A stretch of DNA of 64,000 nucleotides from Tubiluchus corallicola (lineage: Eukaryota > Animalia > Priapulida). The notes under the pieces are model-generated. The model was given only the letters and a program-made list of their open reading frames with translations, did no database searches and was not told where the DNA came from. The position numbers and the translations under genes are program-made. Below, piece after piece: positions 13,427 through 63,180 of this stretch. Within the stretch, counting starts at the first letter, position 1. Each line of letters opens with the position of its first letter. The DNA is taken from NCBI GenBank assembly GCA_030141605.1, contig JAQGDQ010000195.1, forward strand, positions 1-64,000. The letters run 5' to 3'.

Positions 13427-16300
<2,874 letters not shown>

Positions 16301-33999: not shown

Positions 34000-34998
34000 C
34001 TAATGCTGCTGAGTTGCAGTTACTACATTTATCATGACTTGGTTGTTACCGCATTTCTTCCTGCATATTAGTCTTTCTAGAATTCCACGCAATTCTTTAA
34101 CTTTGTAGAAATAGATGATAATATTTAAAAAGCCAGTAACCACGAGCAGTATATTGGCCATTTGCTTTAATGTCCCAAGTTCTCCTTTTATTTTGCCTGA
34201 ATGGTAAAGAATTGAGTGCAAAAAAACAGGACTAAGAGAAAACGCTGTCACACTTGTTAGCAGAAATACAGATAACGTTGTTTTAATCTGCTTTTTCCTG
34301 CCGAAGACACTTTGCTCACTTCCTGGCAAGTGATTCATGGGCATTACACGTCGTTTGTGTCGCAGAACAATGTTTAGTATGCGCGAATAAGCGACTATCA
34401 TCACTAGAAGCAACAGAAAGTAATGTGTAGTATAAAAAAGACCCCATTCATCATAAACGTTGCGTATTACTACACATTCTTTAAAATACATCTTTGTCGT
34501 AGCCATCAGGCATGAACTAGCTATGATGCCTGTGATGCTGCCATATGTCCACAACAAAAATAGAAGTATTTTAATGCGTTTGACCGTAGAGATCATCGGG
34601 TAATGTAAAGGATAAACAATAGCGATGTAGCGATCAATAGTAATGAAGATGTGAGTCAGCATGCTCTGTACTAGAAAACCATATGTTCCAAAAACCCTTA
34701 ACATGCAAGTTCCCTTTGACACACCATTGTAAATGAGCAATTCACTGGTCACGTACATACCAACAATTCCCATACATGCATGTGAAGCAGCCAAATTTGC
34801 CAAAAGCATGTTTCCAGCACTTCTCAATGTCTTTGTAGAGATTATGGCTCCAACAACAAATACGTCGAGTACACTGTTAATTGCTGTAAAAAGCATATTT
34901 ATGCATCTGAAGAGGACGTATGTTGAAGCTCCTGGTGGGTCTGCATAAGCAATGCCATTTAAGACAGTAAAATTTGCTTCTAGTGAAAAGTTTTTCAT
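34000..34998 (-). CDS. Class A (rhodopsin-like) 7TM GPCR, intronless, 332 aa from the first ATG
   Basis: Seven hydrophobic segments, LANLA in TM2, IDRYIAIVYPLHY, AYSRI and N-terminal N-glycosylation sites. The ORF-track start at 35028 is TTG; the first ATG is at 34998. Confidence 0.9.
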   Translation of the reverse strand: MKNFSLEANFTVLNGIAYADPPGASTYVLFRCINMLFTAINSVLDVFVVGAIISTKTLRSAGNMLLANLAASHACMGIVGMYVTSELLIYNGVSKGTCMLRVFGTYGFLVQSMLTHIFITIDRYIAIVYPLHYPMISTVKRIKILLFLLWTYGSITGIIASSCLMATTKMYFKECVVIRNVYDEWGLFYTTHYFLLLLVMIVAYSRILNIVLRHKRRVMPMNHLPGSEQSVFGRKKQIKTTLSVFLLTSVTAFSLSPVFLHSILYHSGKIKGELGTLKQMANILLVVTGFLNIIIYFYKVKELRGILERLICRKKCGNNQVMINVVTATQQH

Positions 34999-35690
34999 TT
35001 CGGATGTATTATTTTGATAATGAAACAATATGTCGGTATAGCAAGAAGTGATAGTTTCTTTGATTTATTTCGTCTTATATATCTGCTATGTTTATCTCTT
35101 GGAATCTGATAACCTACGACATGCGCATAAGCACTTGCTATTATCCTTGATGTAATTTCCCATCCCTCTAGCACGTCGTTTGTTATGTCTGTTAATTTTA
35201 AATGCTTTTTGTTCAGGTATGTGAAATAATATACCTAAATGTCATTTATTCAACTTTATTGTCATGAAGTGAGAGTAATTTTTGTCAGATGTAAAATTTC
35301 CATAACAGATCTCTTCTAAAAGACTTAAAACATACTTATTGTTTACAGCTTTGGCAATTGAAATTGTTTGAAATTTGAAGCAATACTTCAAAGAGGTTTT
35401 AGCTTATGTGAAATCAGGGACAAAGGTAGTCTATGATCTTCAAAGGCGTGGCCTAGGTTAAACACGTTTCTTGTACAATTTGAAAACACTGATGATCAGA
35501 ATATTTTGCATAATTCAAACGGATGCGAATAAAGTATTTTAAGCCCACAAATGTAAGTATGTATAAATAATGAATAGGTTTTATCTTGAAGGTAATATTT
35601 TAATATTAACGAGCATTGCTCATGAATTTCCTCTATAGCAGCTGTGATTGTGATGATGAAGACAGCAACGACAAAATCAAGACTTTGTTC

Positions 35691-40049: not shown

Positions 40050-40943
40050 TTGCGCTTGCACCATTGCTAGTGGAGGGGATCCCGGCCATCTCCTACATCT
40101 TCACAAGGGCCCATTCCCAGTCGCTTATACAATGCTAATGAAATACACGATGTAGTTGCACCGGCATCTATCAGCATGCGCGTGGGCCATCCGTTCAACT
40201 CGACCGAACAGGTTGGCTGGGTGACCAATGGTTCTTGTCAGCCTGTTGAGCTGTGGGTTCGGAACGCGCTTACTGCGTCCCAATCATCCCTTTTTACACT
40301 CGACACCCTGCAGTTGCTGTGGCACCCTCTATGCACATTTATTTCACGCCGTTTTTTATTACTATTCATTTTACTACATTTACTGCATACACTTTTCTCA
40401 GTCAAATATTTACTATTTACAGCGATGCTTGTCTCCGTTACAAAAGCTTGGCTCCTGACGGGGGAGACGACCCGTTGGGAGCCTAGTAGTTTCCCTGTAG
40501 CCTCCTCTGGCCTACTCTTCCAGGTAGAGCAGGGCCTGTATATCGGCATTCTCTAGCAAAATGCCCTGGCCGCTGACACTTATAGCATATATCTGCTTTT
40601 GTGGGCCTTCTTGGGTTCTGGGACCACCTTCCCATACCTTGTCGGCCTAAACCGGCTTGCTGTGGCCTCTGCCTGAGTGCCGGTCCTCCTCTCTGAGGAT
40701 TTCTTCCTACTTGATGCTGGTGACGCTGCCATTTCTCGGGAACTTTCTTCCTTGGCTCAGGGTGACCTTTCTCTGGTCTCTTACTGCCTCCAGGTAGCAT
40801 TAATTGACACACAGGGCCTTCACTTTCACTGGCTGATTCGGTACCTACATAGTATCTCCATAGGCGTATCCATTCTTAGATGGTGTGCGACATGTCTACT
40901 CTTTAATTTGGTAATTTCGTGATTGTTTTCATCTTCGCAACAT
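40050..40943 (-). pseudogene. gag: Ty3/gypsy copy A: gag 3' half with zinc knuckle, gag/pol junction and start of protease
   Basis: CYKCQRPGHFAREC; G_GGA_AAC slippery site plus hairpin; ...VELNGWPTRMLIDAGATTSCIS is a decayed D(T/S)GA protease motif. Confidence 0.85.
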
Positions 40944-42234
40944 TGTCACCTTCTCGTTTTTAATACCTAATGTTTTATCGTATATATCGTATAGATTGAA
41001 TTTAATATGTCCGCTTAATTTCTAATTGCTATAAGGCGAATTCTTCACCTGGCTCCGAGGGCTTTAGATATTAGTCTAGCAAGCAATGATCGTCTTATCT
41101 AAACTTCACCTTGACCTTCGCGTTGTGAGAAAAGGTCTACTTCCCTCAAGCTTCCTAGCAACGCTCCCGCAATATGAGCGCTAGTTAATTCAAAGCGAAC
41201 TACAGATTCGTATATCGGAAATAGTGTTGCTTGAGTTGAACACTCTGATATCATACATTAACTCAATCGTTAAATGTCAAAGAGAATTACTTTATTGATT
41301 TTACAACAGTTACTGCTTCTAGGTAGCTTACAAGATTTGTTCTTATGCGCTTTTGATGCGTACAACTAGTGTATAGCTTCCAAAAGTATCTCTCTGAACA
41401 ATTCTTCAATTCTATCACCTAAGGTGTTCTTTACACTTATCATATAGTACAATGTGAACTTATGCGAACTACAGATATGCACAGTTACTCTCAGTTTACA
41501 AATGTGTTAAGATTACTTAACTCTGCGGATTGACCACAATGTACCCAGTACAATTGGCCAACTCCAATAGTTGATATGAGACTCTCGTTGTCCAGTGCCT
41601 AGATTATCCTAGGAACGCAGAAAGATGTCTACGCTGAACTTCTCAAGTTGTCCCAATGTCCTGTGTCAGGTAGCCCTCTGTGTGAGTCGCACACACTTCA
41701 CGTGTCTCTCCCAGTACGATTGGGTGGAAAGAGCCCTGGGTTATTAAAACTCAGGGCTTATATCTCATCGAAGTAACCTCGTAGTAACCTCGTATGATTT
41801 CAACGTCGCACGCAACACTTAGATTTATTGGACAGCTGGGAGGACATCCAGTTTCTTAGGTTTGTGACTCTTCTTTAGAAACTCTCATCCTTGAAGTCAT
41901 CGTAACCCGTAAAACTCATTAGTCCTCTTTTCATCAAGAAACAGTGACCTCGCAGAGTTTTCGTTAATTACGAGTAACTTGTGCATATAGCTTATAATAA
42001 ACGGTACACCCGTCTCAACCTAATATTAGCTAATTATCCTGAGCATCCTGGTGTCCTTACGTAAACGATAAATCTTACTTCTTGCATCCTACGCTTTCAC
42101 AGCTCATTAAATTCGAGCTTACCAGCTGAGTGAGTTCCATTGCACCATTTGTAAATTTATTCATGAAATCAGGGAGGCATGCGATTTCATACCAAAATAT
42201 CGAGAATCATCGATTTATAAATTTATTCACCACA
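40944..42234 (-). mobile_element. Solo LTR of the copy C family, TG...CA termini, 4-bp flanking repeat
   Basis: Reverse-complement match along its length to 60788-62111. ACAT flanks both sides (40940-40943 and 42235-42238). Confidence 0.88.
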
Positions 42235-43639: not shown

Positions 43640-44295
43640 AAAGTCTCACTTATACTCCTCCAGCAGTCTGAGAATCTGGTGAAATACAAAATCCTCTCCT
43701 GGTAATACTTTGGACCCAAATGCGAAACTTTTCGCTACAGTCCAATTCCTGACGCGTAAATTTCGTAGATCCGCCAATGCACTGCACAGAGCCCATTGGT
43801 CGGTCATAGCGCCTATTTGAGTTGAGAGCCAGCTAGCTCTCTCTACCATAGTGAGTACAGCCCCACTTGTTTGAGCAGAAGTCTGTACTTCTGGGTTAGT
43901 CACGTCTTTGGGGAGGTTACCGCTTTCAACACCTTGGTCATTGTCACGTATTCGTCGCAAAACTACTGCGTGTAAGGCCTGTATTTCCGGACTCTGCCGA
44001 TCTAACCACCCGATCAGGAGACTTCTGGACCTAATCCAGCTCTCGATTTGAGCTTCACTTATCTCTTCAGGGTCTGACATAATATTCAACTTATTCGCAA
44101 CTTGGCACTTAGGTCCTTTGGGCTCCCCTGTATGGGACGCACCCGGGCTGGACCCCTTTCTATACAGTGCATCACCACGTGCCACTGTGTTCTCTGCTTC
44201 CCGATTTAACCTTTTCAGCTTCAGTCGATCACAGAGACTTAGCTCGCCTGTTCACAATTCGGCTTGCTAAGGCCTGACGGTATATTGAGCAATCT
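43640..44295 (-). pseudogene. gag: Ty3/gypsy copy A: leader and gag 5' part (ATG at 44080)
   Basis: MSDPEEISEAQIESWIRS...DQWALCSALADL matches the gag N-termini at 47418 and 57264; frameshifted. The leader matches 55465-55650. Confidence 0.85.
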
Positions 44296-45562
44296 CACCT
44301 TAGAGCAATCAGTGTATTATAATTGTAATTTAAAACACATATAAATCATTTATTACATCTCTGACGTTATAGATATTATATTGTTGGTACAAATGTTTCA
44401 TTACAATGACACATGTAATCTAGATATTAAGGATTACAGTCTTTATTTAACTTGGATTTTAGAGAATAACGTTTAAAAATTAATTAACAACTACATAGTT
44501 CAAGAGAAGGAAAAGAATATTAGTACTGAGTGTTTAAAAAAGGTGTGTCGAGATTCACACTATATTGTTCTAAGAACGAAGTTTTAATTAACGGGTCCAG
44601 CTAAAACTATTAGGACGATTAGCACATTCGAGAAAAAAGGGGCAGAATTTATACCATGAATCTTACTGCTATTGGTAATATATTCAAAATATTAATTCAA
44701 GTGTAAAGTTAGATTAAACTCGAACCTGCTAGCATAACTACCCGAGTTAAATAAATGCCCTGGTTAAATAATGTTTGGATGTTTTTTTTTATTAAATGGT
44801 TCCAAAACGGTCAATGTTTTGAAATGGCAAATAAAGATTTTATTCTTACTACCTACAATTTGAAAAGCTGAAACGAAAACTAGCACAGAACTCCTCCAGC
44901 ATTAATTATTAACTGTTTTCCGATCGATACTAATTTTTTATGTATCTAGCTTACCATTTGGCTTTTCCCCTTTGCTTTTTTCCCTTTTTGCATAATTTCT
45001 TTTTGGTATTTTGTCCTTTTTTTTTCAATTTTTTTGGGTTTTTCTTTTTTTTCTCCCTTTCACTAATTACTTCCAACGTCAATTAAATCAGGCATCACTT
45101 CTAATGAAGCGAGCCATAGTTCCTCCACTCCAAGTTCTTTTGCTGCCTTGAGGAGGGTCGCCAGATGAAATATTTCTCCGATTTCCCATCGCTGCATCGC
45201 GATGCACTACGCCTCGCGATTGATCAACCGTACTCTATCTGGCGCTAAATATTCTAATAATTTGGCCATTACTGGCATGCCACGCATTTGGCTTCCTATA
45301 AAATGAATATAAATCCTCATTAATATTCCTTTAAGCAAAATCATTTTACTTCTGTAATTTAATTCACACGATTTTAGCTTCAAAATTACCAATATAGCGA
45401 TTGTGATTGCTACTAGAAATTAAGTAAAAGAAACTGACGTATTACCTACCTCATCAATCACCGACTTTCCATATAAGAGCCGTAGGCTCCTGGGAAGTTC
45501 AGGTCGAACTGACTAATTTGTCGCTGAATCCCCGCTAAGAGGTCATCCCTTTCTACTAAAGT

Positions 45563-47117
45563 TGTTATGAATAAATTTCTGAATCATGAATTAAGTGATT
45601 AATTAATGGAGTTATCAACTTCATTAGATTATGTTGATAAAGAGACCTCCTAATTGGATTAGGTAAATTTATTGAAAGATTATGGGAACTCACTTAGCTG
45701 GTTAAAGCACATATTTAATGCGAGGCAAGAAATTATCGTCACAGAGTTTGTGTTTACAAGGAATAGAACAGGTGTTCATTTAGAGAGTAAAAGTTTGTCA
45801 CAGGTGTTTATTTAAGAGAGCGTAGAAATTGCAGGTGTTTAGTTTAGAGGAAGCAAAGCTTATTTTTATAACTTTGCGTGGTTAGATAATAAGCCTGATG
45901 TAATGTTATGCGGAGTTGCCGAACTATAATTGAGAAGAAGCAGAAAGTGGTTCTTTTCTTGAAAGAGAGTTTATAATCCGAGCGACGCAAGGAACTATCT
46001 CTCGAGTTGATGAAGTGAAGGACAAGGCGAGTAGCAGTGTTTTTCTCATGTAAGAAGCTACGTTACCTGCCATCTGGATGGTCATAAACCACCAAGCCAA
46101 GAACGTAACCTTTGAACTATTGCGACACGTTGGGGCGTTAGCGCGCAATGTTACGAAACTCTATTAGAGTATATAAGATGGTGTTTTGGAAGAACACGTG
46201 GCTAGTCGGATGTGAATCGAACGTGAGTGAGTTCGTCAGTCAGAGAAGGGAGAAGATCAAGTCTGGAGAGGCTACAGGAGTTCTGAGAGAAGCAAAGACA
46301 CGTTAGACACAGCGTAGACAACAATCTGCATCCTCAACGACTTGAGCACTGGATCTGCGAATAGAGTCTTGCAGCGGAATTGGATTTGGCCAATTGAACA
46401 GTTGTCATTGGTCATTCCACCAAGTTAAGTGATCTTAACATATCGTAACTTGAGAGCAACTCTGCATAGTAGTAAATCACAGTAATAGACACCTTAAGTG
46501 TAACGTGTAGTTGATTGTAATTGCATACTTCACATTGTAATTAGCACCTTAAGTGCGAAGTAAGGAAATAGTTAACTGAATCTGATTAGTGTCTCTTGGA
46601 GCTAATTATTAATTGTGAGCGTCTTTGGCGATTAAGATCAAACATTGTAAAATTAGTTGACTGAGAGTAATTGTTGTAAAACAATAAACGGATTTCACTT
46701 TAACTTAAAGGAATAGTTTGTGTATGCTTATAGGTGTTTCAGTTAAGCAACATTAAATTCTGTAAACGAATCTGAAGATTTGCTGTGTACATTAAGTTAA
46801 TTTACAAGTTCAATTGCGGGAACTCTAAGTTCAAAGACTCTAATCACAACGCGGAGTCATAGAAACAGTCTTGTGGGAAGATATCATAGCCCTATAGACT
46901 TTATCTTAAGCTCTAGGAGCCAGGTTGTAAATAACCTTATAGCAATTAGTGTAATAGAAGCGAATCACTCTTTAAATAGTCGTGTGTCTCCTTAGGTCAC
47001 GTGTTATACGATCACGAGCGAGAGATAAGAATCAATATTAATTAGAGAGATTAATAATACATGATAACGAATACGATAATTGGTACTAGTGACCATAGTA
47101 AAGAGGAGAAACCGATA
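45563..47117 (+). mobile_element. 5' LTR of Ty3/gypsy copy B (diverged sister family)
   Basis: Starts TGttatgaataaattt, like TGtggtgaataaattt of family C. Shares blocks such as aactcac...agctggt, cagcgtagaca and caataaa. Ends GATA directly before AC plus the PBS. Confidence 0.75.
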
Positions 47118-47119
47118 AC

Positions 47120-47140
47120 TGGTGCCGGTGACAGCAGGAT
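47120..47140 (+). promoter_or_regulatory. Primer binding site, tRNA-His-like (copy B)
   Basis: tggtgccggtgacagcaggat approximates TGGTGCCGTGACCAGGAT, the complement of the animal tRNA-His 3' end. Confidence 0.65.
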
Positions 47141-47417
47141 TTTGTTTGCTTAACTAAGTATTGTAATCAATATTGTTTGATAAGTTGTAAACTGTGAACT
47201 GCTTGCATTACTCTCAGGTGTGTCATAATTGAAAGTGGAAGCTGTCAGAGAAAGCTAGGACACAGCTGGAAATTTATTGGAGGACAATTACTGAGGCGGT
47301 TCTAGAAGATATTGGAGACCCCAAACCAAATTGGTAGGTGGTTTTTATTGTCCAAGGTGTTAACAGCCTGAAATATTGTATTAGGAAAATTTTGTGTTGC
47401 GATAAATTCTGTAAATT

Positions 47418-48700
47418 ATGTCGGACCCTCAGGAATTAAAAAGCGAAGCTCAAATTGAGAGCTGGATCCGGTCCGGGAGTCTGCAGGACGGATGGTTAGA
47501 GCAACAGAGCTCAGAGGTTCAAGCTTTACATGCGGTAATTTTACGACGTATAAGAGACGAGGAACAGAAGGCTGTAGGCAGCCAACTCCCCAAAGAAATG
47601 ACTAGCCCAGAGGTTCACACCTCTGCTCAAATAGGTGGGGCAGTACCCACGATGGTAGAGAGAGCGACCTGGCTCTCCTCTCAATTAGGAGTTATGACCG
47701 ATCAATGGGCATTGTGTAGCGCATTGGCGGATCTACCAAAATTTTCGGGTCAGGAATCCGATTGTAGTGAGAGATTTAGAATTTGGGTTCAGGGTATTAC
47801 TAGGAGAGGTTTTTGTATCTCACCCGACTCACAGAATGCTGGCGGTGTGTGTGTAAGATTGGCTTATGTGACGGTTGATGGTTCTTGCACTCAGTACTTA
47901 GATGCGAATAGGGAATTCTGGTCTGGTATGAACTGGAGTCAGTTCGTAACGTATTTGGAACAGCGGTATGTAAACCGTGCTGAATTAACGAAACATATGA
48001 TTGAATTAAAGAATCTCAGGCAAAAGAAACATGAATCTTTGCGACAGTTAGTTGACCGTATTTGGTACCACGCTAGATTGGCGTATCGACCTTCAGAAAT
48101 TGACCAGCCCCTTGCACAACAGTTTCTAACTGATGTATTAATAGAATCGCTTAGAAATGGTCAATTAAGAGCCAAACTGATTAAGCACAACCCCCTGACC
48201 CTAGAGGTGGCATATGCGAGATGCCGAGATGATGAAAGTAACCATGAGATTACCAGGTTAAAGAGCCGGCAAGTCGCTCACCAGATGAGAATGGATACGA
48301 CCCTATGGAAGTTGATTGTATAGCGACTAAATCGAATAGTGAAGATGACAGCCCTGTATGTCAGCTGATGGTGCCCAGAGATGCTAAAAGGCCAGAACAA
48401 GGTCACCCTGAGAATAGAAAAAAAGTTCCTGAGAACGGCCAGGGTCAACAGCATCCGGTAGGTAGGAATCCTCCCCTCAGAGGACCGGCACCTAGGCAGC
48501 GGCCTCAGCCCGCCGGATTAGGCCGTCAAGGGTTGGGAAGGTGGACTCAGAGCCCACGAAGGCCCACACAGGCGGATATATGTTTTAAGTGTCAGAGGCC
48601 GGGACACTTTGCTAGGGAGTGTCGATACAGGGGCCCTGTTATGCAAGGAAGAGTAGGCCGTGGAAGGCCGCAGGAAAACTCAACGGTAGTCTCCCCCGTG
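47418..48700 (+). pseudogene. gag: gag of copy B, frameshifted near 48300
   Basis: Capsid-like LKNLRQKKHESLRQLVDRI; CFKCQRPGHFAREC knuckle in ORF 48305-48976. Confidence 0.88.
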
Positions 48701-48929
48701 AGGAGCCGAGATTACGTAACGGAGACAGGCAGCAATGTAAATAGAATTTTAAATAAAATTGGTACATGTAAATGTTGTAAATGCGGAAATGATAATAGAA
48801 AAAGGCAGACTGCGCTTAAAGGGTGCCGAGAAAGGTTAAAAATAGCTAGTGTAGGGAAAGATAAATGGGATACCGTGAGAGCGTTTCGAACGCACAGCTC
48901 CACGGGTTGGCAGGAATCCATAATTGTAG

Positions 48930-49849
48930 GAGAGGATATGTGGGAGAGGATTATTTTGAGAATTATTTACAAATGATGCATCAGGCTTTTGTGGTAGCTA
49001 AGAAGAGAACAGAAGAAGCCAGAGCCAAGTGTAAGGAGTTGTATGACCGTAAGGCCCAGACTCGTCATTTTAGGGTCTATTATAACCAAGCTATGAAGAT
49101 AAAAGCTTCAAGAAAACTGCATCAGTATTGGGAAAGTAACCATGTTGTGTTGACAAGATTAGGTAAACATAGGTACAAGATAAAGAACATGGACACGGGC
49201 CGGGTAAGGACGTGCCTTGTGACACATTTGCGATTAGTGCCTCCCACGGCTGCCTGGTCAACTAAACCAGGAGCTCGAGAGAAAAATAGAGCAAGCAGAC
49301 CTCTGCGTAGAGCTGCCCGCGTTTCTGAACCCGAAGTCTCCCAGGAAGGAGAAAATGTTAGTAGGAGGGCCCAAGAAGGGTCAGCTCCTGTAGGAACCTC
49401 GTTGCAGGGAGCAACGTTAGGTCAAGGGAAGGAAGATAGCGAGAAGGCTGTAGATAATGCCGAGAGTTTGGCATGGGAACGACCTTGGCGAAGAGCTGTC
49501 TGAAGCAGAAGAGACACCTCGCCCTGGTGTACCGGAAGAGGATAACTCAGAGATCTCTAGTAGTTCGCCACCACCCCTGCTATTGCCGAAAGAAGATCAC
49601 TCGGGCGCCACCAAGCGAACAAGGAGCGATAGTGGTAGCGAATTCTCTGAGGTTAGTGCGAAGTCGAGACGAACCGGAAGTGATATGACCTATAGCGAAA
49701 CCTCTCAGACAGGTAGTTCGGTAGAGTCAGAATATGAAGATGAAGGACCTCCTCCCCTAGAAAAGGTTCTTCATATGTCTCGAGCAGCAACCCAGGTTCA
49801 GAAACCTGTGGGTTGGACCTGCGTTTGGACACGCTGGCTTAGAAAGTGA
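48930..49849 (+). pseudogene. pol: Integrase C-terminal tail of copy B plus Ser/Glu-rich extension; most of pol deleted
   Basis: K.LYDRKA...F....SRKLHQYW...VV..RLG..RYKI.......HLR resembles the GPY/F module. No protease, RT, RNase H or integrase core upstream. Confidence 0.7.
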
Positions 49850-50192
49850 AAGTTATGGTAGGACGCAGGTGTTCGCAATAATTAGGCGACCTCATGAAAT
49901 AAATGGGATAGATCTGATGTTGTTTGCGAGCTGTTTAGTCTAGTTATGAACTCTTGATATGCTTAACCTCGTATTAGGTTAAGAACTAATATCCGCGCAC
50001 GCGCAGCAGATCTAATGATAAATAGTAAGGCTGGAACTGAATAACTTACTAATTTAGGAAAAAGGTTAGGGCCACTCTAGGGGGAGGAAAGTCCCCTAAC
50101 CTATAGATAAAGATATGAGAATGATGATAAATAAATGTACAGTGAGTCCAGATCTTTCCAAGGCTATGATGTTTTGGACTGTTTTTCAGAAT

Positions 50193-51400
50193 ATGGAATC
50201 CAAAATAGTGCTGTGGATGTTCGGGAGTCTCATGTTGGTACTCTGTGAAGCCAATGTAGTGACCAGTCTCGGAGCAATCTTCATCCGTAAAGGAGAAGTC
50301 CAAGTATCTCAATCCCGATGGGCCCTATTAATGCAACTAAACATTAGCCCGGTTGAACTTTGCTTGGAAGCTTTGAAGCAAGAAATGCTTATCTCAAAGC
50401 ATCATTCTTGGGACCCGGCTAGACGTGTGGATGAACCCCACACCCCATTGCATCAGGAGGATAGGTTCCTGGAAGCCATCACAGTGTTAGTAAACACTAA
50501 AGCTTCAACTTATCTGGCTGAGATGCAGGAGCTAGAGCAGAAGACGAATGACATAGCGCACCTCCTGGCCTCTAGGAGAGCAGGAGATCGTCAACCATCC
50601 TCAAGCGAAAATAAGTCTAGGCCTGAACCTTCATCCGGAATGAACCTGGATGGTAGGACTAGAAGAAGCCGAACAAGGCGTAGCTTGCTTCCTTTCCTAG
50701 GGAAAATTTCTAAAGCCCTAACAGGTACTGCAACCGAGGAAGATCTACAAGCCCTGGCAGGAAAGCTTAATCTGATACAGGCCTCCCTAGAATCCATGCA
50801 GCACATCCTTGAAAAGTCTGTGACATTAATAAATTATACACACATACAGAGTCAGGAAAACGCTAGACATATAATGTTGTTGCAGAATGACACTGCAGAG
50901 TTAAAATACAATTTAGCGGAACTTAAGGTGGAATTTGCATACCACGCACAGATAATGACTCATGAGATGGTGGCATAACAGAAATAATGGCGCTGATGCA
51001 GCGTATTTCCCATACTATGCGAAGGCTGACTGACAATGTGCACAAAATGACAGACATGTTGTCTACTTTATTGTCGGGCACGATGTCACCTCTTTTATTG
51101 GGACCTGCACAGTTGCGAGATACACTGTTACCGAGTACTTTATCCTTACCGGAAAGGCTGGAAGGAGATTTACTGTATTATTATGAGACTATGGAAGTCA
51201 CGTTATTAGCTACTGCTGGAGGATATGCGGTGCTAGCCCTCATATCGCTACAGCCAGATCAAGATAGGTTCGACTTGTTCCAGATCGTACCTATGCCTAT
51301 GGTAATGCCAAATTCTACGGTTTATATTTACCTTAATCCAGGGAGGAAATATTTTGGTATTAATATAGAGAGGACAAAGTTCTTCTTAAGAATTTGTAAT
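50193..51400 (+). pseudogene. env: Envelope protein, F-type (errantivirus env / baculovirus F-like); frameshift near 50975, 3' truncated
   Basis: Signal peptide MESKIVLWMFGSLMLVLCEA. Furin site RTRR is followed by fusion peptide SLLPFLGKISKALTGTATEED and heptad repeats, then GTMSPLLLGP..L, FDLFQIVPMP and YIYLNP..KYFGIN. No TM anchor remains. Confidence 0.82.
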
Positions 51401-51446
51401 GAACTTCTTTAACTTCTCATGAAGTTAAATATTCGACTTTTAGTAA

Positions 51447-51806
51447 CTTATAGATATCGAAAACAACCTTTTCGGAGACTACAAAAGAAATCAGTTTATT
51501 CTACTAGATCTACCGCATACCAAATATTTCAGAAGATATCCATTAAGTGTAATTAACTTTAAACCTTACTTTGATAAATACTTAACTATGAGGGCAGTCA
51601 AACGCTTCGAACAATATGAACATTATGACTTACAGAATCGAACAACCTTGCCTGCTATAAACTGCCATGATTTTATGCGTTGCCAAAATTATTTTGAGCA
51701 CTTAATGGGAGAGCCACATACTTGTGTTGATAGTGCAATTTCAAACTTTCAGACTTCAGTGTCATTTCAGTGCAATTTAAAACATTCACACTTCAGTACA
51801 ATTTAA
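51447..51806 (+). other. Stop-free frame of about 119 codons, unknown product
   Basis: LIDIENNLFGDYKRNQFILLDLPHTKYFRRYPLSVINFKPYFDKYLTMRAVKRFEQYEHY...; same frame as the nuclear receptor; no recognised domain. Confidence 0.35.
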
Positions 51807-51839
51807 AAACATTTAGACTTTCGTGTAATTGTTCAAGCC

Positions 51840-52652
51840 ATGTCGAACACAGTCACACGAAGCTGTTTAGTCTGATCTGCACCAGCTTCTGTTAGACGCT
51901 ATGGTATATTTACGTGCAGTGCATGTCGGTATTTTTTTTATCGACAACAGCATACTCAGAAGGCACCTCCACAACAAGGCTGTGTTGGGGACTGTTGCAT
52001 TACTCCAGACACCAGACGCTATTGTAAATTTTGTAGACTTAATAAATGTATAACAGAACTGCCTCAAAGCTAAATTGACCAATCGTATTAAATCCACCGG
52101 TCAAATGCAAACCAGCTCTTACCAGTAGCGATCCGGATTACCACTCAGAAGACATGCCAGCAGCCAGAATTACAAACATTATCCCAAAACGACCAAATAA
52201 TTCTACTAAAATCCGGTATACCAAGTATTGCATTAATATGGATGTACACGTTAATTAACTTCGCTTCGCTTGCACAACAGACAGTACCTCAGCACCAACT
52301 CAGCGATTTTGACGAATTTACGCAACAACTTTATAGGACCGCACAAGCTATTATGTTAGTCCGACCATCTCAAAACGAATTAGACATATTAACGAATATC
52401 TTACTGTATGACTCAAGTTGTCTCAACTTAGAACGACCTGATCAAGTGGCTATTTTTCACTCCATGTGGATACAAAGATTTAACCACGAGATTGCCATGA
52501 CATGGCCCTCCAGATTCACCTCGCAAATGGCGGCTTTGAGCAATTTCCAGGCACTATACCAAGCTGTAATTGCATTTGCAACACGTCTCCAGTCTTCACA
52601 ATTGACCCCCGATCAAAATGCTTACTTTCAACTAAGGGAAGAGAAGGAATAA
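51840..52652 (+). pseudogene. Intronless, compact nuclear receptor (C4 DBD plus NR1-like LBD), 270 codons with 3 in-frame stops
   Basis: From gccATG at 51840: MSNTVTRSCLV*SAPASVRRYGIFTCSACRYFFYRQQ...GCVGDCCITPDTRRYCKFCRLNKC, then in the same frame PELQTLSQNDQIILLKSG and ELDILTNILLYDSSCLNLE. Stops at 51873, 52071 and 52089. Confidence 0.87.
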
Positions 52653-52664
52653 TGTGTAGAGAAT

Positions 52665-52990
52665 GATTTGTCATTTGTATTTTGAATTCATGATTTATAT
52701 TTTGAATTCATGATTTGTATTTTGAATGATGATTCTAGATTTGTATTTTGAATGATTGTATTTTGAACTCACGAAATGTGAACTCCTTTGTATTCTGAAT
52801 GATGGTATTTTGAACTTGGACGAACTCTGAACTTATATACTCTGAACTCATATGATGTGTGTTTTGAATATATGTTTAAAATATATTCGTAATTTGAACC
52901 TTGATGAATTTTGCATATACACATACTTTGAATTAAACTTTGCACCGCGAACTTTGAAGTCATGATATGGGTTATACATAGTAATTGATG
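52665..52990. repeat. Degenerate short tandem repeats (atttgtattttgaa-like)
   Basis: Repeated tttgtattttgaat / ctgaac units directly after the receptor stop codon. Confidence 0.6.
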
Positions 52991-53799
52991 TGAACTTGTG
53001 TGTTTTAAACTAAGGGTGCTTAAAGAAAAAACAAAAAAAAATTATTAGTAGTATAGCTATATCTAATAAAGATAATGATGACGATTAAACCTATGATCTA
53101 TGATGATGAATGTTAGGATAATATGCTGTGTAGCGGGTGCATAGACCCTTTTTTGGTCTTTATTTAGTTACTGCCACGGTGCTGCCACCTGTTTGTTTAT
53201 TTAGTAGACTTTTTGCCTTTTACAGTAGTCACTCTTTTAAAATTGAAGCACCTAATATCCTTGAATACATTAGCATTTTGATCTTTCGCTATAGCTATAG
53301 TAGTTGTCTGACATTTTACCCGTCTTTTGATTCTCTCGGCCATTGCTCTAGTGTTGTCTATGGTGAACATTATGTCTGTAACTTTCTTACGAGTTTATTG
53401 TTGTGACATCGTTGTTCTTAAGGCCTTGGAGTTCTCATTCCTGTCTTTGTAATTGCTAAAGGCTCTAACAACGTAAGTCATTATTAATTAATTTCAAATT
53501 ATCTCAAATTATTATATATTATTGAATTACAGAATAAAGAAACTTTTGGTCAGCACATTAAACTGGTGTTTTGCATCCATTTCATACTGTATGGTAATAA
53601 TGATATTTTAAAGAAAAATGTTCGTCATGATGATTTGGTCACAATGATATTATAGTATTATAAGGAAAAATGGTTATTATAATGATATTATATATATACT
53701 GATGTTGCTGAGACCTTGAATAATGTAATCACCAAAGATAATAACTACCTCAGCATATAGAGGCTTCTTCTAGACATTCGCACGTAATCATTCGCTTGT

Positions 53800-55440
53800 T
53801 ATATGACTGTACTGTTAGTGTAGATGAAATATATGCCATGATACAAACCATGAGCAAAGGTAAATCAGCAGGCTATGATCAAAGATATGCTGAACATTTG
53901 TTATACGCTCCTAGAGTATTATCAATGTACATAGCAATGCTGTTTAATCTTATATACATACACTGTTAGGTGCCAAATGATTTTGGGAAAGGAATAATTA
54001 TACCTGTTGTTAAAGATAACAATGGCGACCTAACAGATTTCAATAATTATCGTGCCACTATCTCAAAATTATTTGAATCTGTTTTACTGGCAAAGTTTGG
54101 TGATTGCTTAGAAAGTGACGAATTACAATTCGGTTTTAAAGTTGAATCAAGTTGCAATCATGCCATACATACCATAAATGAAACGGTAAATTTTTTCACC
54201 GCAAGAAATAATCCTGTATATGTCGCATTTCTAGATGCCTCCAAAGCTTTTGATAGAGTACTGCACGGAGGGTTGTTTATTAAACTGGTAGAAAAACGGG
54301 TTCCCAAGATATTTGCTAACGTATTAATGAATTGGTATAGTAAACTTACGGCCTGTGTCAAATGGGTGTAAGTTTACTAAGATCAGTGTAGTACCCAATT
54401 TTGTATAAAAACAGGTGTCAGACAAGGAGGTGCATTATCACCGATTTTATATGCTGTATATACAGACGACCTTATACGTCAATTGCGTTCAGCTGGTTAT
54501 GGTTGTTACGTGGCAGATAATTTTGTGGGTACTGTCATGTATGCTGATGACATTGCCTTGTTGTCAGGGTCATGTAGACACTTACGTGAAATGCTTAAAA
54601 ACTGTGAAAAATATGGTATAGAATGGAGTATCTCATTTAATCCTAACAAAACACGGCTTCTTTATTTTGGTAAAAGCTTTACTGGAGAGGGTGTAATCTG
54701 TTTTTGCGGTAAACAACTGATCTGGAAACAGACAGTAAAGTATTTGGGTTGCGATATTGTGACAAGTGATAGTTTTTCTATTGATGTTTCAAGGTTAAAA
54801 AGGAAATTCATTGATTCCGTGAATAATATTCTCTCAAGTATGGGCCACAACCGTAATGACATAGTAGCTAAAACTCTGGTCAATACATATTGTCTACTCA
54901 TTTTGTTATACGGATGTGAAATTGGGGGTATATCAAACAATGAAGTTAATGCCATTAGGGTAAAATGGAACACTGCTTATAGAAAAATATTCGATTTTAG
55001 ACAAAATGAAAGCGTCAAATTGTTAATGTATTTTTGTGGCACAATGCCTGCGAATTATTTAATAGAGTGTCGAAAATTAAACTTTGTGAGAAAAATTGTA
55101 AACTCTTGCACATTGAGAATTCCAAAGCTATGCTACTATGTAAATAACAGTCAAGTAAATTTAAGATTTAAATATGGTTGTACTGTAGATCTAAACGAAA
55201 ATGTCAAATTAAAGGTTAAGAACTCATTTAAATCATATGTTTTAAGATATCTATTATAGCTTCTTACAACACTGTATAATGTAATATAATTACAAGGGAA
55301 CTACAATGTCTGGTTATTATAAAGTTGAATGTCTGTAGATATGTTACTTTACTAACATCGCATTACCTGTTTTACTAACATCTTTAACTTTGTAAATTGC
55401 ATATTTTATACGAAATAAACTTATAATAATATTAATGATA
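53800..55440 (+). mobile_element. 5'-truncated LINE with disrupted RT ORF
   Basis: NNYR, LQFGFK, FLDASKAFDRV, GVRQGGALSP, YADDIALL and VKYLG motifs; AATAAA and a TAA-like tail near 55413-55440. Confidence 0.88.
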
Positions 55441-55464
55441 ATATCAGAAATAATACGAAGAGAA

Positions 55465-55650
55465 ACATGCCCAATGTACAGTCAGGCCTTAGCAAGCCGA
55501 ATTGTAATCAGGTGAGCTGAGTCCCTGTGACTCATTGCTGCTGAAGAAGCAGTCAGGAAGCAGAGAGCACAGTGGCATGTAAGGATGCCCTGTGTGGAAA
55601 GGGGTTCAGCTCGGTTTCACCCTATACAGGGGAGCCCAAGAACTCAGAAC
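55465..55650 (+). mobile_element. Leader remnant of an older Ty3/gypsy copy (D) left of the copy C insertion
   Basis: gtcaggccttagcaagccgaattgt...tacaggggagcccaa matches the copy A leader at 44110-44295 (reverse strand). Confidence 0.65.
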
Positions 55651-56934
55651 AGAAACTTGTTTATAGAAATTAAAACAATAATTTAAAGAATTGTGGTGAA
55701 TAAATTTATAAATCGATGATTTTCAATGTTTTGGTATGAAATCTCATGCCTCCCTGATTTTATAAATAAACTTACTAATTGATCAAGAACTCACTCAGCT
55801 GGTATGCTCGCATTTAATGAGCTGTGAAAGCGTAAGATAGGATCCGTGAGAAGAAGTAAGATTTATCGTTTACTTTAAGGACACCAGGATGTTAGGAGTA
55901 ATTAGCTAATATTAGGTTTAGACGGATGTGTCATTTATTATAGCTATATGCACAAGTTACTCGTAATTAACGGAAACTCTGCGAGGTCACTGTTTTTCGG
56001 TGAAAAGAGGACTAATAGTCTTTACGGGTTATGACGACATCAAGGATGGGAAGTTCTAAAGAAACTCACCGATATAAAGAAATCCGATGTCCTCCCTGCT
56101 GACCATAAATCTAGCGATTGAGTGCGACGTAGAAATTGCGCGAGGTTACTTCGTTAAGATATAAGCTCTGAGTTTTAGTAACTCAGCGCTCTTTCAATCC
56201 TACCACAGTGGAAGAGACACGTGAGTGTGCGACACGAGTCACACAGAGGGCAACCTGACACAGGAGATTGGGACAGCTTCGGAAAAGTTCAGCGTAGACA
56301 CTTTCTGCGTTCCTAGGATAATCTAGGCACTGGACAACGAGAGTCTCATATCAACTATTGGAGTTGACCAAGTGTACGGCATACATCATATGATAAATGT
56401 AAAGAACACCTTAGATGATAGAGTTGAGGAATTGTCAAGTGAGATACTTTTGGGAGCTATACACTAGTTGTATGCGTCAAAAGCGCATAAGAACAAATCT
56501 TGTAAGCTACCTAGAAGAAGTAACTATTGTAAAATCAATAAAGTTAATTCGCTTTGACATTTAACGATTGAGTTAATGTATGATATCAGAGTGTTCAAGT
56601 CAAGCAACACTATTTCCGTAATAGAATCTGATTGGTTCGCTTTAAGTTAACTAACGCTCGAATTGCAGGAGCGGTGCTCGACAGCTTGAGGGAAGTAGAC
56701 CTTTTCTCACAACGCAAAGGTCAAGGTGAAGTCTTGATAGACACGATCATTGCTTGATAGACTAATATCTAAAGCCCTCGGAGCCAGGTGAAGAATTTGC
56801 CTTGTAGCAATTAGATAATAAGCGAACATATTAAATTAAAATTCAATCTATACGATATATAGATATAAGTCACCTTACACTATACGATCAAGATAAACGG
56901 AGAACATTAGGTACTAAAAAGGGAAGGTGATAAC

Positions 56935-56953
56935 TGGTGCCGTGATCGCGGAT
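56935..56953 (+). promoter_or_regulatory. Primer binding site, tRNA-His-like (copy C)
   Basis: TGGTGCCGTGA, 2 nt after the LTR end, complements the tRNA-His 3' end. Confidence 0.75.
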
Positions 56954-57263
56954 TTAGTATTTGCAATCCTTTGTAACTTTGTAATTAAGGTTCTGAATTT
57001 TGTAAACTTTGTGAACTTGTTATATACAGTAAGTACGTTATTCTCAGGTAAAACGCAACTGAGAGTGAAAGTAACTAGAGCAAGCCTTGAGGACATTCAC
57101 AAATTGGAGAAAGAAATTACCAAGGCGGATCTGAAGGCTGCACCAGAACGACGTTGAAACCCTCCCCAACTAATTGGTGAGTGGTTTTTGTATTATCTGA
57201 AGGTATTAACAGCCTGTGTTATTGTATTGAAAATATTTTGTGTTGCGCCTAGTTGCGGAAATT

Positions 57264-58500
57264 ATGTCAGACACTCAAGAAATAACTGAAGCTCAACTTG
57301 AGAGCTGGATTAGAACCGGAAGTCTCCCGATCGGTTGGTTAGACGGGCAGAGTCCGGAGATACAGGCCTTGCACGCAGTAGTTCTGCGAAGGATACGAGA
57401 TAGTGAACAGAGCGCTGAAAGCGCTAAAGATGAGACTAAACCAGAAGCACAAGCTTCTGCTCAAACAAGTGGGACTGTACCCACTCTGGTAGAGAGAGCT
57501 AGCTATCTCTCATCTCAGATAGGGACTATTACTGACCAATGGGCTTTATGCAGCGCCTTGGCGGATTTACCTAAATTCACGGGTCAAGAAATAGATTGTA
57601 GCGAAAAGTTTCGCACGTGGATTCAAAGCATTACTCGGAGAGGGTTCTGTATTTCGCCTGATTCCCAGAATGCTGGTGGAGTGTGTGTGAGATTGGCCTA
57701 TATGACTGTAGACGGTGCTTGCGCCCTTTATTTGGACGCTAATCGTGAGGTTTGGTCTACCATGAATTGGAGTCAATTTGTGACGTTCTTAGAGCAGCGG
57801 TATGTAAACCGTGCAGAATTGACAAAACACATGGTAGAATTAAAGAATCTTAGGCAAAAGAAAAATGAGTCCCTACGGCAGTTAGTAGACCGTATCTGGT
57901 ATCATGCTAGATTGGCGTATCGGCCATCAGAAATCGATCAATCATTGGCCCAGCAGTTTTTGACGGACGTATTAATTGAATCATTGCGGAATGATCAGTT
58001 AAGGGCTAAGTTAATTAAGCATAACCCCCTGACCTTAGAGGTGGCGTATGCAAGATGTGGGGAGGATGAAAACAATCATGAGATCACAAGGTTAAAGAGT
58101 CGACATGTGGCGCACCACCTGCGAGTAGAGACGCCCATGGAGGTTGACTATGTAGGCTCTGAGTCAGAGAGCGAGGGGCCCAGTGTGCCAGCTAGTACTT
58201 CCCCGAGTTACTAAAGGACCTGAACAAGGTCCCCCTGAGAATAGGAAAACGGTTCCTGAGCAACCTCCGGTGGGAAGAAATCCTCCGAGAAACGGACCGG
58301 CACCTCGGCAACGGCCGCAGCAAGCCAGATTAGGCCGACAAGGTATGGGAAGGTGGTGGTCCCAGAAACCCAGGAGGCCTACACAAGCAGACTTGTGTTT
58401 CAAATGTCAGCAGCCAGGGCATTTTGCCAGGGAATGCCGTTATACTGGCCCTGCTGTAAGAGGAAGGGTGGTAGGCCCGAGAAGGCCGCAGGAAAACTAA
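57264..58500 (+). pseudogene. gag: gag of copy C, one frameshift near 58180
   Basis: ATG at 57264; collinear with gag B; CFKCQQPGHFAREC; TAA at 58498-58500. Confidence 0.88.
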
Positions 58501-58536
58501 TAGGCTCCCAACGGGTCATCTCCCCCGTCGGGAGCC
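58491..58536 (+). promoter_or_regulatory. Programmed -1 ribosomal frameshift signal (gag/pol)
   Basis: G_GAA_AAC at the gag stop, 5-nt spacer, then stem-loop ggctccc-a-acggg...cccgt-c-gggagcc. The downstream open frame is -1. Confidence 0.72.
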
Positions 58537-58752
58537 CACCTTTTGTAACGGAGACAAGCGGCGTTGTAAATAATAGAATTATGAGTAAAACTAATATATG
58601 TAGTAATTGTAGCAGTAAAACTGAAAATAAAAAATGGCGTGATGCGCGTAGTAAGTGCCAACATAACTTAAGGGTAACGAATATAAACAAAGGGAACTGG
58701 GACGCGATAAGTGCATTCCAACCTAATAGCTCAACAGGCTGGCAGGAGCCGC

Positions 58753-60150
58753 TCAGAGGTGCAATTTTTGGGCTATATAATTAGTAAAGATGGATTAAGG
58801 CCCGACCCCGAACGTGCGAGAGCAGTACAAACAATGGACCGCCCAGTAAATGTGAGAGGGGTGAGAAGTTTTATAGGTAGTTGCAATTATTATCGAGCTA
58901 ATATACCGAGATTTGCAGAGATAGCTCGGCCTTTAAAGGAATTAACAAGGAAAAATATTAAGTTTGTATGGGGGAACGCCCAGGAAAAGGCTTTTAGAGA
59001 GTTGAAAGCGGCGTTATTGAACCCCGTAATGTTAACACACCCAGACACAGAGAGGCCCTACATTTTGTATACAGATGCAAGTTTATATAGTGTGGGAGGT
59101 GTTTTGACTCAAGAGATTGATGGAGTAGAGAGACCAGTAGAGTTTTTCTCTCATCAATTAACACCTACCCAGCAGCGTTGGACTGCCTCGGAGCTCGAAT
59201 TGTACGCGATAATTTACGGTATTCGGAAATTACACCATTATCTGTATGGTAGCCGCTACGTTATATGCACAGACCATAAGAGTCTGCAATATTTGCTTGA
59301 GAGCAAACAGTTAAAAAATCCGAAATTAGAGAGATGGGCCTTGTTACTATCGCAGCAGAATGCGAAGATTGAGTATTGCCCCGGGAATAAGAATCCCGCA
59401 GATCATTACAGTCGACTACCAATGAAATTAATGGAGCCGCAAGCAAAACCGCCATTTACCAAGAGAGACTTGGATGCTAGGTTGCGCCGCCTAGAGAATG
59501 AAAATAATATTCATAAATTAGCCACTATAGGAGATGATAGCTCGCCATCAGAAAGCAGTACATTTAAAGATCCAGCACGCCCAGAGGCCCCTGCTGTGAC
59601 CTTTACTGCGGATGGCAGACCTATTTTATTAGAATATAATGATGAAGATTGGGTTCAGTCTGCCAATTCTTCTGGGATATTATTCCCAAAGAAGAAAGTG
59701 CAATTGCGTGAAGAAGCATTGCTAAAACGTAATAAGGTTAATGAAGGTACTGAGACTGGCCGACAGCCAGGTCCGGAAGTGACCCGATCGGAGGTCACTG
59801 AATTAACGACGGATAGTAAGGTGAAGGAAGCGTTGATTGATAAGAAGCGATTTGCTTTATTACAGGGTCAGGATGCAATGCTCTCCTACTTAATACACGT
59901 CATCACTAGTCCTAAACAGTCGCAAGAGGCATATAGATTAATGGAGGACTATGCTATTAATGATGATGGATTACTATGCCGTATAAATAAGAGATACGGG
60001 GAGAATGAAGGGAGTTATTATTTGATAGTCGTCCCCACAGTGCTAGTAGAAGAAGTTATTCGGGAAATACATAGTTCTTATGCCGGAGGACATTTTGCAT
60101 TGGCCAAAATGGTCAATAAAATTCTTATAAAATTTTGGTGGTCCACCATC
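58753..60150 (+). pseudogene. pol: pol remnant of copy C: RT thumb, RNase H and start of the integrase Zn finger
   Basis: EVQFLGYIISKDG, VRSFIGSCNYYR, LYTDAS, ELELYAI, TDHKSL, NPADHYSR and IHSSYAGGHF. Protease, the RT YxDD motif and the integrase DDE core are absent. Confidence 0.9.
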
Positions 60151-60775
60151 CGGCAGGGACTCCTGAGGAACAGGAACCAAGGGTTAAGGTTAAGAGGACT
60201 AGACAGCATGTAGAGGACCCTGTGGAGTTTGAGTTGAGGGAAATACCTCAACCCGCTGCCCGAAAAACTAACCCGGAAAGGATCGAGATGGCCTAACATT
60301 TATAATTGAGAATGGACATAATACTAAAATTGTAGGATTAGTATATAAATAACAGGCTGGTGATATTGGATGATCGTAGAGGAACCACCCAATTAGGTAT
60401 AGAGGGATCTATGTAAATAACTGTATAAGAAATGATATTTGATGAAACCCATGATACTGCGGAATGTATTTTATGTTACAGAATGATGGGACCATTGGAG
60501 ATGGAAGGCGGGAAGAAGATGAAGTCGGTAAAGACAATAAGGGGTGTATCTGAGGAAGAATCTCAAGAGATTAATGGAATCAAAACCCCGGTCCAGGAAG
60601 CCGAAGAGACTCGATGGACAATGGTATCCCGCCACCATGACCTCCAAGATGGAACGTCCCATAGTATATTAAGATGTAACATGTAATATTGCTAATATAA
60701 CTAATTAAGGAGCTTCCAAAAGATGAGACCTTAGAATGGATCATTAAATACGTGCTACATCTGGAGTGAGTGTTA

Positions 60776-60787
60776 GGGGAGGAAAGT
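60776..60787 (+). promoter_or_regulatory. Polypurine tract before the 3' LTR
   Basis: aggggaggaaag(t) abuts TGtggtg. Confidence 0.8.
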
Positions 60788-62649
60788 TGTGGTGAATAAA
60801 TTTATAAATCGATGATTTTCAATGTTTTGGTATGAAATCTCATGCCTCCCTGATTTTATAAATAAACTTACTAATTGATCAAGAACTCACTCAGCTGGTA
60901 CGCTCGCATTTACTGAGCTGTGAAAGCATAAGATAGGATCCGTGAGAAGAAGTAAGATTTATCGTTTACTTTAAGGACACCAGGATGCTAGGAGTAATTA
61001 GCTAATATTAGGTTTAGACGGATGTGTCATTTATTATAGCTATATGCACAAGTTACTCTTAATTAACGGAAACTCTGCGAGGTCACTGTTTTTCGATGAA
61101 AAGAGGACTAATAGTCTTTATGGGTTATGGCGACATCAAGGATGGGAAGTTCTAAAGAAACTCACCGATATAAAGAAATCCGATGTCCTCCCTGCTGACC
61201 ATAAATCTAGCGATTGCGTGCGACGTAGAAATTACGCGAGGTTACTTCGTTAAGATATAAGCTCTGAGTTTTAGTAACTCAGCGCTCTTACAATCCTACC
61301 ACAGTGGAAGAGACACGTGAGTGTGCGACACGAGTCACACAGAGGGCAACCTGACACAGGAGATTGGGACAGCTTCGGAAAAGTTCAGCATAGACACTTT
61401 CTGCGTTCCTAGGATAATCTAGGCACTGGACAACGAGAGTCTCATATCAACTATTGGAGTTGACCAAGTGTACGGGGTACATTGTGGTCAATCCGCAGAG
61501 TTAAGTAATCTTAACACATTTGTAAACTGAGAGTAACTGTGCATAACTGTAGTTCGCATAAGTTCACATTGTATCATATGATAAATGTAAAGAACACCTT
61601 AGGTGATAGAGTTGAGGAATTGTCAAGTGAGATACTTTTGGGAGCTATACACTAGTTGTACGCGTCAAAAGCGCATAAGAACAAATCTTGTAAGAAGTAT
61701 TTAATTGTAAAATCAATAAAGTTAATTCGCTTTGACATTTAACGATTGAGTTAATGTATGATATCAGAGTGTTCAAGTCAAGCAACACTATTTCCGTAAT
61801 ACGAATCTGATTGGTTCGCTTTAAGTTAACTAACGCTCGAATTGCGGGAGCGGTGCTCGACAGCTTGAGGGAAGTAGACCTTTTCTCACAACGCAAAGGT
61901 CAAGGTGAAGTCTTGATAGACATGATAATTGCTTGATAGACTAATATCTAAAGCCCTCGGAGCCAGGTGAAGAATTCGCCTTGTAGCAATTAGATAATAA
62001 GCGAACATATTAAATTAAAATTCAATCTATACGATATATAGATATAAGTCACCTTACACTATACGATCAAGATAAACGGAGAACATCAGGTACTAAAAAG
62101 GGAAGGTGATAGAATTAAGGAGAAGAAAAATCAATGCGGATGGTAGGAACTCGACCCATAATTAGCAAAAATACTACCAGGTGTAGCGCTCACCCACCAA
62201 TGGTGCCCAAAGGTGAACAAGAGACATACTTTGCCTTATACTGAAGGCAAAAGGTCTTGAGCATTTACGCCGGAAGTATGTGAAGAGCCCGTGCGGAGAA
62301 CGGAAAGTGTTGTTCGGAAATTAAAGGAGTAGAGCGTGCGATTTCGATGCATAGTGGCCAAACACAAATATTTTAGGAAAATGATTGTAACTCGCACTGT
62401 ACGCTCGCGAATTAGTGTAGTTTAGAACTCTTGACATGTCCGGGCTACTATTAGACCGTGGACTAAATTCGCATAAGCACAATGAAATTAAGGACAGTTG
62501 TAAGTAAATAAATACTTGCTGTTTGGGAAAAGGAGGTTAGGGCCACTATAAGGGGAGGAAAGTACCCTAACATCAGGAACCGGATAAAAGCTACAGTGTA
62601 AGTCCAGATTTCTGCAAGACTGTGATATTTTGGCCTTGTTTTTCAGAAC

Positions 62650-63180
62650 ATGGATACCAATATTGTGCTGTGGATCATAGGAAGTCTCACGTCGGCACTT
62701 TGCCAGGCCAATGTAGTGACCAATCCCGGAGCTTTATTCTTACGACGAGGTGAAGTCCAAGTGTCTCAATCTCGATGGGCCCTGCTGATGCAGTTGAATA
62801 TCAGTCGAGCTTTGCTTGGAAACCTTGAAACAGGAGATGATTAATCCGAGGCAACATTCCTGGGACCCTGCAGCCCGTGTCGACAAACCCCACACTACGA
62901 TGTACCAAGAGGATAGGTTCTTGGAAGCCATCACGGTGTTACTAAACACCACGGCTTCAACATATCTGGCTCAGATACAAGCGCTGGAGTGGAAGACTAA
63001 TGACATTAGCACACCTCCTGGCCTCTAAGAGAGCAGGAATTCGTCAACAATCCTCAGCCCAAGGTGAGCCGAAACCGCAAAGCCTACTCCCTTTCCTAGG
63101 GAAAATTTCTAAAGTCCTAGCCGGTACGGCTACTGAGGAAGATATAGAAGCACTAGCAGGGAAACTCAACCTGATACAGA
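62650..63180 (+). pseudogene. env: env remnant of copy D (frameshifts; furin site deleted)
   Basis: MDTNIVLWIIGSL...GEVQVSQSRWALLMQLNIS, QEDRFLEAITVL and SLLPFLGKISKVLAGTATEED are all collinear with env B. Confidence 0.82.

Follow-up and report, generated by a model that had tools for sequence, protein, structure and literature searches.

The window analysed here, a 64,000-nucleotide stretch of DNA from the priapulid Tubiluchus corallicola, contains the decayed, intron-free frame of a nuclear receptor whose ATG lies about 430 bp past the end of a truncated env gene, on the same strand (Table 1). The env gene belongs to a degenerate Ty3/gypsy-type element (element B). A new observation is that the receptor and the spacer upstream of it exist as several copies, 5-17% diverged, in sequencing runs of two studies. 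The best explanation, held tentatively and with somewhat less than even confidence, is that an env-bearing Ty3/gypsy family carried this intron-free, multi-copy receptor along as an accessory fourth frame.

Table 1. Features of the window in and around element B, the receptor frame and element A.
Feature	Positions	Strand	Remarks
5′ LTR of element B	45563-47117	+	starts with TG; summed depth in run X1 7,500-17,000, against 156-183 for window-identical contigs
Primer-binding site	47120-47130	+	2 nt past LTR end
gag of element B	47415-48700	+	two frames, CCHC knuckle; Retrotrans_gag/DUF6339 weak, zf-CCHC E 4e-6
gag-env remnant	48920-49850	+	lacks protease, RT, RNase H and integrase core
Hairpin with polypurine tract copy	50064-50101	+	directly before env
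env of element B	50100-51412	+	F-type, two frames; Baculo_F E 6.7e-6 and 0.025
Spacer	51386-51839	+	A/T-rich; 27-37 bp repeats; 119-codon open frame 51447-51806
Receptor frame	51840-52652	+	270 codons; three stops, at codons 12, 78 and 84, rendered as X
DBD	51840-52055	+	without N-terminal A/B region; one stop in finger 1; P-box CSACRY
Hinge	52056-52150	+	abnormally short; two stops; length differs in other copies
LBD	52152-52652	+	open from signature to C-terminus; no recognisable AF-2 motif
T-rich 15-47 bp repeats, then A-rich tract	52666-53042	+	A-rich part 53022-53042
Later insertions ending element B	53074-55460	+	very high-copy repeat, then 5′-truncated LINE (RT only)
Element A, complete	55692-62111	+	two LTRs, 4-bp target-site repeat GAAT, gag, partial pol, no env

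The sequence-only reading had proposed that one frame from a gccATG encodes two zinc fingers followed by the signature and later helices of a ligand-binding domain (LBD), that three stops break this frame, leaving a 136-residue piece among the open reading frames, and that introns are absent. All these points were borne out. The ATG at 51840 stands in the context caagccATG, and the stop-free part of the frame (52092-52652) comprises 186 codons, or 136 counted from its first Met. The Pfam profile zf-C4 matches residues 8-72 with E 1.2e-9 (38.9 bits; cut-off, 21.1), in agreement with the two C4 zinc fingers that characterize the nuclear receptor superfamily, both of which are present; finger 1 holds one of the stops. 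The Pfam profile Hormone_recep stayed below its cut-off of 23.5 (16.7 bits, E 0.005), whereas a custom profile, built from 20 of 22 LBD segments cut from database matches (the two others being shorter than 150 residues), gave 53.8 bits for the receptor segment and 29.0 bits for the part following the signature alone, as compared to 9.9 bits at most for 200 shuffled sequences. Signature and helical sandwich, the two marks of a ligand-binding domain, are both present. In the profile alignment, the LBD is unbroken from the signature to helix 10/11, indicating that no intron lies within it; the DBD is likewise continuous. An alignment-based structure model of the LBD (pLDDT 83) matches the LXR, FXR, VDR and RAR domains, with a TM score of 0.7 to LXR/FXR, which shows compatibility and no more, as the modelling alignment consisted of receptors; folding from the single sequence was uninformative (pLDDT 39). 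In an Atlas search with the receptor, 28 of 30 matches fell into Hormone_recep clusters.

The copy in the window is dead. Besides carrying the stops, it has only 40 residues between the last finger cysteine and the LBD signature, as compared to at least 91 in 33 of the 34 relatives having both motifs (the single exception being an odd multi-domain protein). This suggests that the C-terminal extension, the hinge and the first LBD helices are missing here; helices 1-3 of the LBD are missing or unreadable. The first two cysteines of the second finger are separated by 3 residues, versus at least 5 in most relatives, and the D-box is shortened.

Eighty-seven solved sequences match the receptor at E 0.01 or better, with the vitamin D receptor DBD on top. 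The best LBD matches are RAR, ROR-gamma and Rev-erb by sequence and LXR/FXR by fold. Judging from these sequence likenesses, the best matches point to subfamily NR1 and to no finer group. The likeness to NR1 receptors (VDR/PXR, LXR/FXR/EcR, RAR, ROR, Rev-erb) consists of the best DBD and LBD matches; unlike them, the receptor in the window has the P-box CSACRY, a shortened D-box, no A/B region and no AF-2 motif. Among 197 DBDs taken from the 150 matches listed, none exceeds 46% identity to that of the receptor. CSACRY, found in place of a canonical P-box (CEGCKG, CESCKA and kin), is absent among the P-boxes extracted from these same 150 matches. Given the established role of the P-box, this one would be expected to select a response element different from the usual. 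The AF-2 motif consists of a hydrophobic pair, a glutamate and a second hydrophobic pair at the C-terminus; inspection by eye of this one decayed copy found no such motif at its C-terminus, unlike in most complete relatives. Under the best explanation, the receptor, missing this motif, is likely of the repressor type. A word-indexed homologue search with the receptor gave no match among 146 candidates, and a further homologue search gave only generic DBD matches among 255, none below E 1e-30.

Upstream of the receptor, element B displays an LTR, a primer-binding site, gag and an F-type env in the order expected of an env-bearing Ty3/gypsy element. Its LTR aligns locally with that of element A with a score of 324 (30 shuffles, at most 52). 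An X3 contig reaches LTR B from a loose end rich in purines, the arrangement expected of a 3′ LTR; the 255 loose letters preceding this LTR copy could be placed nowhere in 45000-56000. The primer-binding site, putatively of the tRNA-His type, contains an 8-mer found at only two places in the window, behind LTR B and behind LTR A at 56935. The gag products of B and A share 232 of 287 residues (81%), and the likeness between the two elements stops at 48915. In the remnant that follows, no Pfam family was detected in three frames; it contains what is presumably an integrase-tail-like motif. While pol of element B is deleted, relative A shows the RT, RNase H, integrase order, which assigns the family to Ty3/gypsy. 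The env frame aligns to residues 140-359 of the 706-residue protein P0152, similarity ending at 51352. Since the hydrophobic membrane anchor of P0152 lies at about residues 568-596, env B lacks the second half of the protein and the anchor. An env homologue search yielded one relative among 3,795 candidates. Neither a second LTR B nor a target-site repeat for element B was found in the window.

The 11-mer preceding the 3′ LTR of element A (60776) is repeated at 50081 and 62552, each time between inverted arms. The resulting hairpins (50064-50101 and 62535-62571) are conserved, precede env and hold an exact copy of the polypurine tract; they may represent an internal plus-strand primer or the mark of the addition of an env module. 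The LTRs of element A itself differ by 1.9% (1208 of 1232 aligned letters being identical). Its pol lacks protease, the beginning of RT and the greater part of integrase, the deletion starting at the same point behind gag as in element B. A second, shorter env piece (62522-63179, plus strand) and the segment 55468-55690 lie outside element A, which apparently inserted into a third relative, one that carries env; the window contains no receptor past this env piece.

Comparison with public DNA runs was used to look at other copies. Four runs, representing at most two samples from two studies, were compared with positions 45000-56000 at 80% likeness. The listed material comprised 32 of 7,794 pieces, 24 of 1,371 loose ends and 15 of 67 joints, and 12 of the 32 pieces were used, after setting aside window-identical pieces, repeats from the same sample, pieces of the LINE and of the flanks, and a number of further ones from gag, env and the remnant. 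Among the pieces listed, diverged copies of the receptor differ from the window at 53 of 315, 61 of 446, 49 of 329 and 12 of 232 letters; diverged spacer copies at 36 of 244 and 16 of 258; env copies at 98 of 716, 57 of 425, 54 of 362 and 64 of 542; and gag copies at 65 of 448 and 48 of 734. The receptor and spacer thus diverge within the range of gag and env, as expected if all belonged to one element. The similarity is weak evidence, because the 80% threshold bounds the range and long pieces favour diverged copies.

Summed depth points in the same direction as to order of magnitude, the only sense in which it can be read, as it does not give copy number. Taking 170 as the unit in X1 (window-identical contigs having depths of 183 and 156), gag reaches 4-5 units, env 3.6-7, the spacer about 7, the receptor about 9.5 and the LTR 44-100. 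In X3, env stands at 20-40, the spacer at 9-21 and the receptor at 18-22. In other copies, joints occur at 52048-52057, right behind finger 2, and two pieces (X1 record 3 and X4 record 32) carry 105 and 120 unaligned letters at the position of the short hinge. As the others carry extra hinge sequence, the copy in the window would be a deletion derivative in its receptor part, as it is in pol and env. The multiple copies, together with this extra sequence, indicate that the receptor is not a one-off pseudogene, and two outcomes that would have told against the sequence-only reading, a lack of nuclear receptor HMM matches and a single-copy state, did not occur.

That reading had gone on to suggest that the receptor is an accessory gene of the env-bearing element. 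Here the evidence is divided, and cargo status is plausible. In its favour, the frame stands directly behind env and on its strand (at a distance close to the 450 bp originally estimated), its domains are intron-free, it has diverged very fast from all known receptors, its copies match gag and env in divergence and in order of depth, and hinge, pol and env have all suffered internal deletions. On the other side, the complete relative A, bounded by its target-site repeats, has neither env nor receptor. No polypurine tract or 3′ LTR was found past env, in keeping with the earlier remark that none is visible for copy B; likeness of the sequence there to LTR B, the leaders and the 3′ region of A does not rise above shuffle level (best score 43, versus 40). 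A comparison of the spacer with the sequence behind the second env piece gave a short likeness within shuffle scores. None of the 32 pieces listed is a diverged copy running across the env-spacer junction (51385-51490): the diverged spacer copies start only at 51491, one of them (X4 record 29) with 43 unaligned letters before that point. Depth at the junction is a bin mean, with which a dip there is compatible. Just past the receptor stop, summed depth falls to 403 in X1 (about 2.4 units) and to 0 in X3, where a receptor copy departs from the window sequence at 52645.

Base composition also weighs against the cargo reading. At third codon positions, the G:C ratio is 37:48 in the receptor and 205:118 in gag and env of element B (p 0.0012), confirming the A/C-rich shift noticed at the outset; four host genes of the window (294:292) resemble the receptor (p 0.30). 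GC skew goes negative at the env break. By this measure the receptor lacks the G-rich strand bias of element B, as would be the case if it were a host gene, belonged to another mobile unit, or had been captured later than env.

In one alternative, spacer, receptor, T-rich repeats and A-tract form a separate mobile unit, either a multiplied retrocopy or the passenger of another transposon, that inserted into env, the rest of element B being lost later. Such a unit would explain the compositional shift at the env break, the start of the listed spacer copies at 51491 and the depth of the receptor, about twice that of gag in X1. Insertions nested on all sides and the A-rich tract behind UTR-like repeats are also in its favour. 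We nevertheless consider it less likely than the cargo reading. No target-site repeat of 7 letters or more connects 51330-51470 with 53035-53095, the missing half of env was not found behind the receptor, and no transposase or endonuclease frame was found within the spacer-receptor unit. Furthermore, the copies seem to diverge right past the stop codon and not at the A-tract.

Divergence at that point would, instead, be typical of a gene family with diverged 3′ UTRs, and suits a scenario in which the receptor is a pseudogene that deletion or rearrangement placed beside env, its family being one of fast-evolving host NR1 receptors without introns. The host-like third positions agree with this scenario, as do further host genes of the window, those for GT92, a GPCR and a pair of MFS paralogues, each of which has one very long frame. 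The acceptor-like TTTCAG sites at 51747 and 51765, 76-98 nt before the receptor ATG, would suit a 5′-UTR intron, although they are weak evidence, there being 26 such sites on that strand of the window and these two lying in a tandem repeat. Against a host family, the copies share the non-coding spacer, which has diverged as much as the coding sequence, the gene starts at most 430 bp from env on the same strand, and no close relative was found among annotated proteins. We regard this origin as slightly less likely still. Since the region is a nest of insertions, chance adjacency of receptor and env is plausible. Under either of the two alternatives to cargo, protein collections would still be missing a compact, multi-copy receptor whose P-box is new and which lacks an AF-2 motif.

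Two further candidates were rejected: the receptor as ORF1 of the downstream LINE, which is 5′-truncated and far more abundant, with no endonuclease frame linking the two, and the receptor as a part of element A, closed by its own LTRs and target-site repeat. Parts of the 53074-55460 interval have depths of 23,000-151,000; it matches RVT_1, with an RT-like frame from near 53790. Within it, 460 bases (53130-53589) are skipped by a contig in three runs of one sample, likely reflecting insertion polymorphism of the very high-copy repeat. The spacer shows no Pfam family in six frames (best Atlas value, 0.79). A contig at about 6 times single depth lacks 62 of its bases (51594-51655), inside the 119-codon frame, which makes it less likely that the copies have this frame in common as a gene.

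To our knowledge, capture of a receptor by a retroelement is known only from avian erythroblastosis virus (AEV), where it was a recent oncogenic accident. Among the predicted viral structures of BFVD, the only clear match to the receptor is the AEV polyprotein Q64895 (E 0.004, TM 0.61). The v-erbA gene of AEV resembles the present case in being an intron-free NR1 receptor in a retroelement context from which replication genes were lost (PMC2194726). In its own setting, a vertebrate retrovirus, v-ErbA is fused to gag and is almost the same as host TR-alpha; it acts as a repressor that binds DNA and corepressors but not hormone (PMC2194726). Unlike v-ErbA, the receptor in the window has its own ATG behind env, a DBD at most 46% identical to those among the matches listed, and an invertebrate Ty3/gypsy context in which no 3′ LTR was found.

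In a survey of metazoan "errantiviruses" (PMC13524379), the elements, which carry an F-type env, are comparable to element B with its LTR, primer-binding site, CCHC gag and F-type env, and to relative A with its RT-RNase H-integrase order and 4-bp target-site repeat. The survey annotates gag, pol and env only; the terms "nuclear receptor" and "hormone receptor" do not occur in its text, nor "nuclear receptor" and "zf-C4" in its seven supplements (PMC13524379). Other sources describe LTR elements that gained extra ORFs before or behind env or in its place (PMC6431247, PMC5408684): Juno and Vesta of bdelloid rotifers carry a GDSL esterase and a DEDDy nuclease, the ORF3 genes of rotifer elements being expressed from spliced RNA (PMC5408684), and Burro of planarians carries BCL2, BIR and env (PMC6431247). 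In these elements a host-derived accessory gene occupies the 3′ part of an invertebrate Ty3/gypsy element (PMC5408684, PMC6431247), as it would in our case; unlike theirs, the proposed cargo in the window is a sequence-specific transcription factor. The word "receptor" does not occur in either paper (PMC5408684, PMC6431247). A literature search, outside which lay Repbase and most subscription papers, turned up no description of a receptor carried by an invertebrate LTR element. Viral contigs searched with LBD, pol and a generic DBD alignment (IMG/VR with one generic pattern) yielded no receptor locus, and no metagenome locus with receptor plus gag was found.

If the receptor is indeed cargo of the element, a host receptor mRNA, already spliced, would have entered the 3′ part of the element through template switching. 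The receptor could then be expressed from a spliced subgenomic RNA, possibly via the TTTCAG sites mentioned above. The protein, devoid of A/B region and AF-2 motif, would associate with DNA or with a partner, for example RXR, and would act, as v-ErbA does, as a ligand-independent repressor rather than an activator, adjusting transcription of the host or of the LTR in those cells in which the element is replicating. On this reading, whose likelihood we place not far below one half, an enveloped invertebrate Ty3/gypsy family possesses its own fast-evolving receptor behind env, an invertebrate v-erbA, that represses or reroutes hormone-controlled host genes or times the LTR to hormone signals. 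This would mean that a mobile element taps hormone signalling as a standing strategy, and would provide a route by which the odd, intronless, lineage-specific receptors of invertebrate genomes might have arisen. Should the linkage hold, it would be a case of accessory-gene capture with regulatory cargo.

The remainder of the window contains additional traces of these elements as well as host genes. A solo LTR of family A (40944-42234, minus strand) begins with TG, ends with CA and has the target-site repeat ATGT; it is adjoined by reversed gag pieces at 40228-40943 and 43644-44291. Four host genes with long single frames, 9008-10504, 20673-21749, 27502-28593 and 34000-35064, encode a GT92 glycosyltransferase, two paralogous MFS transporters and a rhodopsin-type GPCR; for GT92, no relative at E 1e-30 was found among 7,995 candidates. 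Finally, a tandem array at 17818-18999 is composed of units of about 66 bp with open frames.
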